Source of the DNA: a virus
Taxonomy: Duplodnaviria; Caudoviricetes
Direction: 5' to 3' (one strand)
Length of the DNA stretch: 59,534 nt
Virus record (IMG/VR): IMGVR_UViG_3300020393_000002
Span: 1 to 59,534 of that record
Shown: positions 1,145 to 53,272 of the stretch, piece after piece
How the letters are laid out: each line of letters begins with the position of its first letter
Position numbering within the stretch: position 1 is the first letter of the stretch
Made by a program: the position numbers and the translations under genes
The notes under the pieces: model-generated
Databases searched by the model: none
Told to the model about the DNA's origin: nothing
What the model saw: the letters and a program-made list of their open reading frames with translations, nothing else

Positions 1145-2050
1145 ATGGCTATTTCAAGAGCGCAACTCCTCAAGGAGCTATTACCCGGTCTAAACGCTTT
1201 GTTTGGATTAGAGTATGAGAAGTATGAAGATGAGCATACTGAAATTTATGAAGTAGAAAACTCAGAGCGTAGTTTTGAAGAAGAAGTAAAGTTATCTGGT
1301 TTTGGGGCAGCCCCAGTAAAGCCAGAAGGCTCTGCTATTTCTTATGATTCTGCACAAGAGTCATTTACTTCAAGGTACAACCACGAAACTGTGGCTATGG
1401 GCTTTTCAATAACAGAAGAGGCAATGGAAGATAATCTTTATGATTCATTGTCTGCTCGTTATACAAAAGCACTAGCAAGAGCGATGGCTTACACAAAGCA
1501 GACTAAAGCTGCTTCATTGCTTAACACAGGCTTTGACACATTCCAAAGTGGCGATGGTGTAACATTGTTTAACACAGCTCACCCAACAGTGGCTGGTGGT
1601 AACAATAAAAATAGATTGACAACAAATGCTGACTTGAACGAGACATCTCTAGAACAAGCAGTTATTGACATTGCAGCTTTCGTAGACGAAAGAGGCTTGT
1701 TAATTGCAGCAAGACCTAGAAAACTTATCGTTCCACCAGCGCTAATGTTTGTTGCAACTAGAGTGTTACAATCAGAGCTAAGAGTTGGGACAGCAGATAA
1801 CGACTTAAACGCAATCAGAACCAACGGATCTATTCCAGAGGGTTTTGCTGTTAATCACTATTTAACAGATACAGATGCGTTTTTCTTGACAACTGATGTT
1901 CCTAACGGAATGAAGATGTTCGTGAGAACACCAATGTCTACATCAATGGATGGGGATTTCAACACAGGTAACGTAAGATACAAAGCCCGTGAGAGATACT
2001 CATTTGGTGTGTCAGATCCTCTCGGAATGTTTGGTTCACCGGGAGCATAA
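1145..2050 (+). CDS. major capsid protein
   Basis: MAISRAQLLKELLPGLNALFGLEY N-terminus and RYKARERYSFGVSDP C-terminus typical of a widespread aquatic phage MCP family; AAGGAGG RBS; terminator follows. Confidence 0.9.
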   Translation: MAISRAQLLKELLPGLNALFGLEYEKYEDEHTEIYEVENSERSFEEEVKLSGFGAAPVKPEGSAISYDSAQESFTSRYNHETVAMGFSITEEAMEDNLYDSLSARYTKALARAMAYTKQTKAASLLNTGFDTFQSGDGVTLFNTAHPTVAGGNNKNRLTTNADLNETSLEQAVIDIAAFVDERGLLIAARPRKLIVPPALMFVATRVLQSELRVGTADNDLNAIRTNGSIPEGFAVNHYLTDTDAFFLTTDVPNGMKMFVRTPMSTSMDGDFNTGNVRYKARERYSFGVSDPLGMFGSPGA

Positions 2051-50300: not shown

Positions 50301-51002
50301 TCAAGATGCTAAGGCACTCTCCATGCGAGAGATAACGTCATTATCCTCAGAGGTTTTCTTTTGGGCATCTGCTGAGGCTTTGTCGTGAGCCTCTCTTTCT
50401 CTTTTCTTATCTTGCAATACTTCCCAAATTTTTTGAACCTGATCTGCATCTAGGTCAGTTGGAATATAAACCTCTTCCTCTTTAACTGTGCCATCTTCTA
50501 GCTTAGTCTTTTGGTTCTTGACTTTGCCGAATAACTGCCTCGCAATCTTTTCAGCTAGATCTACATCTTTCTCTTTAGATACTGCCTTTTTGATATCGTT
50601 TTGGCTTTTGATATTCATACTAGCAAAGACTTCAAGTACTGCCTCAGGTGTTGCCTGAGTTGGTATATCGTCATTAAACTTTGCGATAAATTGTACAGAC
50701 TTTTCATAAAGAACTTTACTATTCGCAATAGACATTCCTACGGAATTTTGAAGATCAGTTCTGATATCTATTCCAACTTGTCTAGGTAAGTTGTCGCTAT
50801 CAGTTTTGTCAGCATCATAAATAGGCTTGGCATGGCTAATAGTTGTAGCGAATTGATCTAACTTCTTTTCTTGCATTGAAGTATAATCATCAGCTCTATT
50901 AGTTTTTAAAGATTGGAACTCGCTTTCACTAGCTACCAATCTTTTAATATTTTCTTCAGAGAAAAATACGTTCTTAGATTTTAATTTAGTCATAGTCTGC
51001 AC
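50301..51002 (-). CDS. hypothetical early protein
   Basis: 233-aa helical ORF; AGGAG RBS. Confidence 0.7.
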   Translation of the reverse strand: MQTMTKLKSKNVFFSEENIKRLVASESEFQSLKTNRADDYTSMQEKKLDQFATTISHAKPIYDADKTDSDNLPRQVGIDIRTDLQNSVGMSIANSKVLYEKSVQFIAKFNDDIPTQATPEAVLEVFASMNIKSQNDIKKAVSKEKDVDLAEKIARQLFGKVKNQKTKLEDGTVKEEEVYIPTDLDADQVQKIWEVLQDKKREREAHDKASADAQKKTSEDNDVISRMESALAS

Positions 51003-51004
51003 TC

Positions 51005-51190
51005 CTATATTGTTATTGGGTTTTGTTTAACTTTTATTTCTATTCCCATGCTCTTAATTATCTTTAGCTTATCAAGAGTAAAGGTCTTAGTTCCTAGCAA
51101 TTCAGAGAATTTACTAGCTAATTCGCAAGAGGGATAATATCTCTCCTGACCATAAACCGATTTGGTGGTTATCCACATTTCATTTTTCAT
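51005..51190 (-). CDS. small early protein
   Basis: VYG.ER.YP.C...LLGTKT motif; AAGGAG RBS. Confidence 0.7.
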   Translation of the reverse strand: MKNEMWITTKSVYGQERYYPSCELASKFSELLGTKTFTLDKLKIIKSMGIEIKVKQNPITI

Positions 51191-51201
51191 TAAGCAACTC
51201 C

Positions 51202-51495
51202 TTATGCAATTATTGTTCTGCCGTCATCTTCAACTTGAATTTCTTCAAGCTCGATTGATAAAATTTCATCATCATCAGCTAGGTAATCCTCAGGACAATC
51301 TACCCTATGCTTAGTGTGAAACTTATCCGAAACTTTAAGATAAAGTCTTTCTACTCTTTTAAGACGTTCAAAGAACTCGTCAATTTCCTTAGCCATATCA
51401 GGGAACTCTTCGCCCAAGCCATCTATTTGGTCAGCCGTTGAGTGCATACTCTGCATTAAATCCCATATCTTTTTGTGTAATTTTTCATAGTCCAT
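51202..51495 (-). CDS. small acidic early protein
   Basis: D/E-rich; AGGAG RBS. Confidence 0.7.
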   Translation of the reverse strand: MDYEKLHKKIWDLMQSMHSTADQIDGLGEEFPDMAKEIDEFFERLKRVERLYLKVSDKFHTKHRVDCPEDYLADDDEILSIELEEIQVEDDGRTIIA

Positions 51496-51522
51496 AATAG
51501 CAACTCCTATTTGTTAAATTAT

Positions 51523-51585
51523 CCTAGGACAAAGAGCAGTAATAACTGCTCAATGTTTCGACCTCTCTAGGTCTCGTCAGCTAGG
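51523..51585 (-). ncRNA. type I hammerhead ribozyme
   Basis: CCUAG CUGACGA GACC-UAGAGA-GGUC GAAA CA...UG UC^CUAGG; full core and three stems. Confidence 0.9.
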
Positions 51586-51850
51586 CTACATCATGCAATG
51601 ATCTTAGCTTTAATTTTAACTCTCTATTGATTTCAAAATGTTTAGCTAAATCTTGAAATCTTTTTGTTGGCTTTCCAAAGCAATCAGGATTGTCATACTT
51701 TCTAACTTTGGTCATGCCATGAACTCCATCTCTTTGATAGAAGATGGACATTACTTTGAGGTTATTATTTTTAATTACTGCAAAGTAATTTACACCATTG
51801 ATTGTCTTTTTAACTACGTTAGTAAATTTAGATTTCATTTCCCAATTCAT
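51581..51850 (-). CDS. small early protein
   Basis: AGGAG RBS; stop codon lies in hammerhead stem I. Confidence 0.7.
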   Translation of the reverse strand: MNWEMKSKFTNVVKKTINGVNYFAVIKNNNLKVMSIFYQRDGVHGMTKVRKYDNPDCFGKPTKRFQDLAKHFEINRELKLKLRSLHDVA

Positions 51851-51861
51851 AATAATTACTC

Positions 51862-52164
51862 CTATTCGCTATCTGTTAATTTAATTAAATGATCTACATC
51901 ATAGTTTGAACCATTTATCCAAATATCATGTAACTCCTGACCGATCATAGAGACTATAACTTTAGTTATTGGATTACATATTTGAGAAACTAAATTGTGA
52001 TCTAATTCATTTACTAAATCCATTGTCTCATAGTTACCAACAAACTTACCACCAAACTCCTTGTCTGTCGGACTATCTACATCAGCAATGTTTCCAAAGT
52101 TATAAGCATCAGATAAAAGTCTAAGTAATTTGATTTCGTCTTTATTTAGTTTTTTGAAATTCAT
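51862..52164 (-). CDS. first early protein
   Basis: GGAG RBS just downstream of the type III hammerhead. Confidence 0.7.
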   Translation of the reverse strand: MNFKKLNKDEIKLLRLLSDAYNFGNIADVDSPTDKEFGGKFVGNYETMDLVNELDHNLVSQICNPITKVIVSMIGQELHDIWINGSNYDVDHLIKLTDSE

Positions 52165-52187
52165 AATAGTAACTCCATAAGTTAATT

Positions 52188-52240
52188 AACTGTTTCATAC
52201 TTTTGTAATCATCAGGCACAACACACATTGCACTACAGCC
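52188..52240 (-). ncRNA. type III hammerhead ribozyme
   Basis: GGCUGUA^GUGCAA-UGUGUG-UUGUGC CUGAUGA U-UAC-AAAA-GUA-U GAAA CAGUU. Confidence 0.85.
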
Positions 52241-52452
52241 TAGGACAAGAGGGCAACCGAATTGCCCTCACTATCGTTATTTGAAAAGCCGTACAGATTT
52301 CTAATATGTCTCAAAAATCTCTGACTATCCGTAAATTCTCTAAATAGCCATGTCCTCAAACCTTGGCTTTTCTTTTACCATGGGGAGAGCCTACTTCCTC
52401 CAAGACCTCGCCCTTTCACGAGAATGGGATTTATTGGCAAACTGAGCCTGAA
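52234..52452 (-). ncRNA. putative structured leader RNA
   Basis: Gap with no ORF in the track and several nested helices, between promoter and ribozyme. Confidence 0.5.
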
Positions 52453-52457
52453 GTAAT

Positions 52458-52486
52458 TTTATAATCTTTTTGGAATAATAAGTCAA
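52458..52486 (-). promoter_or_regulatory. sigma70-like early promoter
   Basis: TTGACT-N17-TATAAA with AT-rich upstream sequence. Confidence 0.75.
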
Positions 52487-52717
52487 ACTTATAATGTACT
52501 ATTTTATACTTTATTTTACAGTAATATACATAAATGTACTGAAACCCAAGGTGGACAACAAAAATGACGAAACAACTTTTTTTGATATATCATACCTTGG
52601 AAGTGCTTTCGTTGCTGTGTGCGTCTTAAATCGCTGACAATCGATATTTCACGAAATGAGAATATAAATAGATGGTTGCAAAGCTACACTTTTATTAATT
52701 CGTGTGCTACTTTGTAA

Positions 52718-52733
52718 AAGTTACTATTAACTT
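52718..52733. promoter_or_regulatory. operator copy upstream of terS
   Basis: AAGTTACTATTAACTT, just after an extended -10-like TGcTACTTT. Confidence 0.6.
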
Positions 52734-52747
52734 TTGTGAGATAAAAA

Positions 52748-53272
52748 ATGTCAGATAAAAAAGATAAACCGAAATTAAAATTAGTCAGCAGTAATAAAGT
52801 CAAGAAAAGTTCCAAGCCTGAGCTGACGGCAAAGCAGTTGGGTTTTTGTAAAGACATAGTTGGAATGGGAAAAGATAAAGATGGCAATCCTAAAAAACCA
52901 ATGAGCTTAGTTGATGCATATGTAGCAAATTATAATGTTAGTCCTAAAACCAAGAACAACACTATAAGAGATATGGCAAGTAAGCTAAAAGCAAACCCAT
53001 TGATTACCCATACAATTTCTAGAATGTATGATGAATTAAAGCAGATTAATAAAGTGTCGGCGATAAAAAAAGAGGAAGTAATAATTAGAAAGCTAGAAGA
53101 GTTTATGAATAATGAAGAGTTCTCAGATACAGCAAGGGTTAGATCTGCAGAATTGATCGGCAAAAGTCTCAGTATGTTTACTAATGTTACTGAAATAAAA
53201 GAAAGTGATAAAAGTTCTGTGGAAGTTGAACAGCAACTTAGGGAAAAGCTATCTAAACTTTTAAAAGAGTAG
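52748..53272 (+). CDS. terS: terminase small subunit
   Basis: LTAKQLGF, AY..NY, ASKL..NP.I, RSAELIGK...MF; upstream of terL. Confidence 0.75.
   Translation: MSDKKDKPKLKLVSSNKVKKSSKPELTAKQLGFCKDIVGMGKDKDGNPKKPMSLVDAYVANYNVSPKTKNNTIRDMASKLKANPLITHTISRMYDELKQINKVSAIKKEEVIIRKLEEFMNNEEFSDTARVRSAELIGKSLSMFTNVTEIKESDKSSVEVEQQLREKLSKLLKE

Follow-up and report, generated by a model that had tools for sequence, protein, structure and literature searches.

In prophages, multiple hammerhead ribozymes of mixed types have been described which flank single genes or short variable blocks of genes (Perreault et al. 2011, PMC3088659). For three of these clustered arrangements cleavage was shown in vitro, and processing of the phage transcripts was proposed as their role (PMC3088659). 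The core of a hammerhead is defined in the same text as C3 U4 G5 A6 N7 G8 A9, G12 A13 A14, an A15.1-U16.1 pair and H17 (PMC3088659). A U10.1-U11.1 mismatch was described there as a surprising natural variant with more activity than other mispairs, and the search pipeline of that study rejected such mispairs unless they were tested (PMC3088659). Phage hammerheads that flank genes have thus been in print since 2011, and the case presented here, a pair of hammerheads of two types in a marine podovirus, refines this picture and does not overturn it. Our search of the open-access literature gave no paper that treats hammerheads in marine podoviruses of the pelagiphage-like kind.

The pair lies in a stretch of DNA of 59,534 bp (the whole stretch that was analysed, called the window in the following), which is a complete IMG/VR virus record with direct terminal repeats and a G+C content of approximately 37%. 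The gene content is podovirus-like, comprising a T7-type tail-fibre N-terminus, an LPD38-domain protein of 3,202 amino acids, a primase-helicase and a large terminase. The terminase shares approximately 55% identity with its counterparts in two uncultured aquatic phages and in the Pelagibacter phages HTVC027P and HTVC023P. The window is present in metagenome runs from 10 studies, nearly all of them labelled marine; at least a part of it was found in 20 of the 24 listed sequencing runs and half or more of its words in 18. The ribozyme region is the head of a minus-strand gene block that runs leftward from the divergent intergenic region adjoining the terminase genes. The host of the ribozyme pair is a free, complete marine podovirus, and the pair sits at the start of a leftward operon. 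The label "early genes", which the first-pass annotation had given to genes 2 and 3, is plausible from their position. The genes around the ribozymes and a possible promoter are located as follows:

52458..52486, minus strand: possible sigma-70-type promoter (TTGACT, 17 nt, TATAAA), read by eye and conserved in the relatives L005 and L006
51862..52164, minus strand: gene 1, an ORF of 100 amino acids with no family match above cut-off
51581..51850, minus strand: gene 2, an ORF of 89 amino acids without a family match, whose UAG stop (51583-51581) is part of the 5' strand of stem I of the type I hammerhead
51202..51495, minus strand: gene 3, an ORF of 97 amino acids and the first gene downstream of the type I hammerhead

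A search of the small genes around the ribozymes against PHROGs and Pfam gave nothing above cut-off, and at the DNA level the early region had no match among GenBank phages. The promoter scan of the region did not list the TTGACT-17-TATAAA site. Elsewhere in the window, Rfam family RF03012 (Mu-gpT-DE RNA) matched at 2094-2140 on the plus strand with 45.8 bits (gathering score 49, E=2.2e-7), directly 3' of a 301-aa ORF (1145..2050).

On the minus strand from 51585 to 51523, a type I hammerhead had been proposed between genes 2 and 3; it is complete, and every listed element, coordinate and count was found to hold. This ribozyme (HH-I) and the features that depend on it are:

51523..51585, minus strand: type I hammerhead ribozyme HH-I, identified by sequence, RF00163 match, covariation and fold energy
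51585-51581 (CCUAG) with 51527-51523 (CUAGG), minus strand: stem I, 5 bp
51580-51574, minus strand: core CUGACGA, from the sequence
51573-51560, minus strand: stem II with its loop, GACCU-agag-AGGUC, pairing as GACC(U)/(A)GGUC
51559-51556, minus strand: GAAA, of which GAA is 51559-51557
51556-51529, minus strand: stem III, ACA/UGU (3 bp), a UU/UU internal loop and the 7-bp hairpin GAGCAGU-uauu-ACUGCUC
between 51528 and 51527, minus strand: predicted self-cleavage site, after GUC and before C, with C17 placed at 51528 by the Rfam alignment
51496..51527, minus strand: predicted 5' leader of gene 3 after the cut, 32 nt, with AGGAG at 51508-51504

All parts of the conserved core are present, that is, CUGACGA, GAA, the A15.1-U16.1 pair and C17, and the pairs G10.1-C11.1 and C15.2-G16.2 were found as well. 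The Rfam alignment has three helices, of which stem I is open and the other two end in loops, which is the type I topology, and its C17 coincides with the cut position named beforehand. The stop codon of the upstream ORF had also been placed correctly inside stem I, and so had the 32-nt leader: the AGGAG sits eight nt upstream of the AUG of gene 3, whose ORF starts at 51495.

A comparison with the Rfam hammerhead models had been suggested as a check. RF00163 (Hammerhead_1) matched HH-I over its full length (model 1-45 of 45) with 29.8 bits and an E-value of 7.5e-5 in 1.8 kb or 0.0025 in the whole window, where it was the second-best Rfam match overall; the score is 4.2 bits under the gathering score of 34, and the scan of the whole window at gathering thresholds lists nothing, HH-I appearing only under E-value thresholds. 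HH-I has the same topology and core as RF00163 and aligns to it from end to end, but it carries a 22-nt insertion in stem III and a stem I of 5 bp, and the shortfall in score fits an insertion of this size in a model with a short stem III. A copy in contig L031, which differs from HH-I of the window by one compensatory pair in stem I (UCUAG/CUAGA), scored 34.6 bits and is above the gathering score. Three other type I copies introduced below (L027, L029 and L030) were not listed by Rfam at E<=0.1.

The hammerhead fold of HH-I was calculated to -24.5 kcal/mol versus -25.6 kcal/mol for the minimum free energy (MFE) fold, a gap of 1.1 kcal/mol. In the MFE fold of the window sequence a part of the core, GACGA, is paired with UUUGUC, which is an inactive alternative, and in the homologues L030 and L027 the MFE fold is the hammerhead fold itself. 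A type I descriptor of our own, which asked for CUGANGA, GAAA and UH together with stems II and III of 3 bp or more and a stem I of 5 bp or more, has one match in the window, namely HH-I. When the window was shuffled with its dinucleotides preserved, only 3 of 300 shuffles contained any match at all. An origin of the motif by chance is unlikely because of these shuffles and the Rfam E-values.

Close relatives were found via the flanking 89-aa protein and the downstream ATPase. Among eight related contigs, five contained an identical or near-identical HH-I (L002/L009, L003/L010, L004/L012, L005/L008 and L018/L031) and three lacked it (L006, L007 and L011), so that HH-I is dispensable. The flanking protein of L005 is no more than 46% identical, yet HH-I lies there inside an identical block of approximately 170 nt, with diverged sequence on both sides; the block extends past the ribozyme by approximately 75 nt on the upstream and 50 nt on the downstream side. 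These observations bear on the reading that the motif is an inactive relic or a chance look-alike and is conserved only through a recently exchanged block of DNA: the copies of the close relatives are identical and therefore silent on selection, the block in L005 extends beyond HH-I like a recombination tract, and three close relatives do without the ribozyme. In a further run (X3, record 10), a DNA contig of 171 nt matches the window only over the 70 hammerhead nucleotides (51519-51588, 5 differences); its flanks are unlike the window on both sides, the ribozyme being again a conserved island.

Since identical copies carry no structural information, viral contigs were scanned with the core and loop II as the sole fixed parts of the pattern. 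Nine stretches were obtained which, together with the window, amount to five distinct sequences; those beyond the window-type copies are L031, L027 (= L028), L029 and L030, and they depart from the window in stems I, II and III. In the alignment of the five distinct sequences all 12 pairs were kept (60 of 60 cells paired), 8 of them change on both sides, and the changes are compensated in all three stems. The covariation score and the percentage paired were reached by 0 of 500 shuffles and the number of doubly changed pairs by 7 of 500, figures which are based on five sequences found with a pattern that itself fixed the core and loop II; the measure of further pair types was not distinctive (422 of 500 shuffles reach the value). 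When the alignment was slid as a control, 27-34% were paired. Each of the five contexts places the start of the ribozyme within -9 to +3 nt of the upstream ORF's end and the ribozyme 76-88 nt ahead of the next start; the flanking genes are unrelated between the contexts. Distant copies in unrelated surroundings which keep every core nucleotide and compensate every change in a stem argue against a relic, as do the shuffled windows and the whole-window E-value given above, and we regard that reading as improbable. The consensus core, the compensatory changes in three stems among five viral copies and the L031 score above gathering bear out the assignment to type I made in the first reading.

Around stem I, an AG before it and an AUAA after it were invariant in the five type I sequences (alignment A3, window 51518-51590), although the scan pattern had left them free. 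They may be a tertiary docking element for loop II, as judged from this invariance; a pairing partner for loop II was not identified in the A3 alignment. Hammerheads depend on a tertiary contact of loop II with stem I to cleave fast at physiological Mg. A looser pattern, in which the AUAA was fixed, gave 53 stretches with 37 distinct sequences. Predicted type I hammerheads of the HH-I build are widespread in viral contigs, since 33 of these 37 distinct sequences satisfy all three stems.

The 7-bp hairpin in stem III gives rise to another reading, in which the region is mainly an intrinsic terminator or attenuator: the hairpin and UUUGUCCU would stop or pause transcription between genes 2 and 3, and the likeness to a hammerhead would be secondary. 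A terminator scan indeed flags this hairpin (7 pairs at 51551-51534, with 5 T among the 8 bases of the tail window) as the sole site in 50900-52900, but one such site is what shuffles lead to expect (mean 0.8, sd 0.8), and the U run is weak and interrupted. Further, stem III is closed by different hairpins in the homologues L027, L029 and L030, and no U run follows these, so that a GC-rich hairpin with a U tract is not kept in the homologues, and the core and stems I and II are conserved and covary, though a terminator needs none of them. A terminator as the main function is therefore very unlikely, and a self-cleaving HH-I is the reading followed below.

A type III partner cutting between 52234 and 52233 had been implied by the first-pass annotation. 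Such a motif (HH-III) was located upstream of gene 1:

52180..52243, minus strand: type III hammerhead HH-III, whose stem II is closed by a U10.1·U11.1 mismatch, identified by covariation and by covariance model R1
52240-52235 with 52193-52188, minus strand: stem III, GGCUGU with ACAGUU
between A52234 and G52233, minus strand: predicted cut, A17 being the cut nucleotide
52233-52228 with 52221-52216, minus strand: stem I, GUGCAA-ugugug-UUGUGC
52215-52209, minus strand: core CUGAUGA, from the sequence
52207-52205 with 52200-52198, minus strand: stem II, 3 bp with a tetraloop of A's, followed by GAA

HH-III has the core and the three helices of a type III hammerhead, with stem III open. Positions 10.1 and 11.1 do not form a Watson-Crick pair and hold U·U in every copy. 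Relatives were found in L019, L020, L021 (two copies) and L023, in which the core and the loops are kept and all three stems are changed and compensated: all 14 pairs tested are kept across the six sequences, both sides having changed in 7 of them, and 0 of 500 shuffles match this result. Rfam did not recognise the motif, RF00008 giving no match in 51000-52800 even at E<=10 and none in the type III relatives L019 and L021 at E<=0.1. The implied partner was hence upheld by covariation and not by Rfam, and the covariation of the aligned sequences supports HH-III as a putative type III hammerhead. The fold itself is weak, with -6.9 versus -9.6 kcal/mol for the MFE fold.

The covariance model R1, built from the six type III sequences, found HH-III in the window with 84.4 bits and further copies in 11 other places among 19 sources (L019-L023 included) and in L031. 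The named phages nearest to the window (HTVC027P, 023Pt_psg01, DSL-LC04 and HTVC023P) gave no credible match to R1 or RF00163; the best R1 match in named phages (18.9 bits) was not a hammerhead on inspection. A scan of viral contigs for the U·U signature gave at least 119 stretches with at least 128 distinct sequences. Among the 128 distinct matches listed, 114 had all three stem II pairs, and the full type III fold was present in 110, with 81 different stem I sequences, whereas 18 failed; several contigs (e.g. L100 and L135) carry two or three copies. The members of this U·U type III family (L085-L161 and further) share an invariant U10.1·U11.1, a stem II of 3 bp, an RAAA loop and a loop I resembling UGUGU. 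In the phage group of the window, most type III copies are directly preceded by a GC-rich hairpin (L020 4150-4180, L021 3908-3934 and 4255-4280, window 52249-52269 on the minus strand), which would cap the 3' end of the upstream fragment after cleavage.

The two predicted cuts delimit the genes between them, and upstream of HH-III lies a leader:

51528..52233, minus strand: predicted 706-nt two-gene RNA, derived from the two predicted cut sites, with ORFs of 100 and 89 amino acids
52239..52433, minus strand: untranslated leader of approximately 195 nt between the conserved promoter region and HH-III

The distance of 706 nt and the two ORFs within it are as the first reading had them, and this RNA would be excised if both ribozymes cleave. 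The genes enclosed by the ribozymes are variable: in five arrangements the cores are 611, 719, 282, 685 or 239 nt apart with different small genes in between, and the constant parts across the arrangements are the ribozyme blocks with their ribosome-binding sites. Even between near-identical phages, which agree to 98% in the rest of their sequence, the content of the cassette differs while the ribozyme blocks stay the same. The leader is variable as well: in relatives with 98% identity over the rest, unrelated sequence stands in its place, and at least two versions exist (window 52239-52433, L005 926-1113 and L002 2425-2612). Its folding z-scores (-1.97 for the window type and -0.41 for the L005 type) give no strong sign of structure, and an Rfam search of the leader gave no match. 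The leader ends in a hairpin and the 10-mer TTGTCCTAGG (52248-52239), and the same 10-mer ends HH-I (51523-51532, minus strand), both copies being preceded by a GC-rich hairpin. If one mismatch is allowed, the 10-mer occurs 4 times versus 3.3 expected. L007 and L004 have CTAGA at the end of the leader, and L007 and L011 keep the motif at the leader end without having HH-I. The 3' end of the leader was aligned with HH-I to see whether it could be a type I hammerhead in decay or a further substrate of this ribozyme; the identity covers only the last 10-11 nt, and neither CUGANGA nor GAAA is present. The shared 10-mer may be a remnant of recombination.

From the observed motif, its conservation and its covariation we infer cleavage in vivo, the chemistry of the ends and an insulating role. 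With good confidence HH-I is predicted to be functional and to cut co-transcriptionally after C51528, and together with HH-III would split the primary transcript and insulate the exchanged cassette. While the operon is being transcribed, the RNA would fold into a three-way junction and cut itself after C51528. The upstream fragment would keep nearly the whole of HH-I including the 7-bp hairpin, and would thereby be structured at its 3' end, which would bear a 2',3'-cyclic phosphate; the message of gene 3 and the genes after it would have a 5'-hydroxyl and a fixed 32-nt leader with the ribosome-binding site of gene 3. Cleavage by hammerheads leaves 5'-OH and 2',3'-cyclic phosphate ends, and the chemistry is proposed here because it is established for hammerheads. 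HH-III, located 650 nt upstream, would remove the variable leader of approximately 200 nt and give gene 1 a fixed leader, the body of HH-III staying on the 5' end of the message of genes 1 and 2. The products would be the leader RNA, the 706-nt two-gene message and the downstream message, and as an outcome the swapped cassette would be insulated from its neighbours in stability and translation. Since the stop codon of gene 2 lies in stem I, a terminating ribosome would have to melt HH-I, and cleavage probably precedes the first ribosome or follows its release. Contigs from RNA libraries were also inspected. One contig of a relative spans the HH-I cut site with 25 window-like letters on one side, which uncleaved RNA and carried-over DNA would produce alike; two RNA libraries contain small parts of the window, and another RNA contig covers a part of genes 1 and 2, contigs showing neither ends, strand nor cleavage.

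The ends proposed for the 706-nt RNA lead to a further reading, in which it is released for circularisation by HH-III or by a host RtcB-type ligase and becomes a stable circular message with both genes. The 3' end left by HH-I, UUGUC, could pair with the 3' strand of stem III of HH-III, ACAG, by three Watson-Crick pairs and one wobble pair, which would place it beside the 5'-OH of G52233; in relatives, type III copies that lie in tandem have a single stem III in common. However, two of these pairs are dictated by the hammerhead consensus and carry little weight, and the type I relatives L027-L030 have no type III partner on the DNA examined. A joint of 51528 to 52233 was not found in the contigs of four runs, a kind of data that cannot exclude one. 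For clustered phage hammerheads the earlier study reports no circular or spliced products, as data not shown (PMC3088659). Circularisation of the 706-nt RNA, raised by the first-pass annotation, is pure speculation and in our estimate highly improbable.

A wider version of the preferred model, in which the ribozymes insulate the cassette, would see HH-III and HH-I as the fixed borders of a plug-and-play cassette. As natural insulators they would provide each inserted gene set with a standard leader and an independent lifetime, their DNA would serve as the joint for recombination, and the released leader or a circularised cassette RNA would possibly be functional. Taken as a whole, this extension is rather doubtful.

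With these findings, a well-supported pair of putatively self-cleaving hammerheads is added to an abundant group of marine podoviruses. Both HH-I and HH-III are missed by the current Rfam thresholds. The U·U type III subfamily is common in viral contigs, and pipelines which reject the mispair adjacent to the core would skip its members. Moreover, the locus is a test case for the questions why phages cut early transcripts by ribozymes instead of host RNases and whether cassettes bounded by ribozymes favour the exchange of genes.

Among known systems, the hammerheads of viroids and retrozymes belong to the same ribozyme class, and an RNA excised with 5'-OH and 2',3'-cyclic phosphate ends would be common to both; there, multimeric replicating RNAs are processed into circles, whereas here the genome is that of a DNA phage, the cargo is protein-coding and two types of hammerhead are involved. 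The U10.1-U11.1 hammerheads of Perreault et al. 2011 (PMC3088659) have the same mismatch as HH-III. What is described there as a variant is here an invariant feature of a large viral family with at least 110 distinct full copies. HHphage of the haloviruses HF1 and HF2 (PMC3088659) is a leader element a few nt before the start codon of an early helicase gene, which comes first in a polycistronic transcript, and resembles in this respect HH-III before gene 1. As far as it is described there, HHphage has an unusual insertion in the core and a 5' end mapped near the cut, whereas the copies in the window have consensus cores and are known from sequence. Closest to the window pair are the clustered hammerheads of prophages, such as the ardA triple in Agrobacterium tumefaciens and the cluster in Clostridium scindens (PMC3088659), which likewise combine mixed types in one transcript, consensus cores and variable bracketed genes, and for which the cutting of long phage transcripts into gene-length mRNAs was proposed in the text cited. 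In comparison to these, the pair described here, for which sequence is the source of evidence, belongs to a free marine podovirus; its particulars are the stop codon inside stem I, the combination of a type III (U·U) with a type I hammerhead, and the position of the two ribozymes at the borders of a hypervariable cassette.
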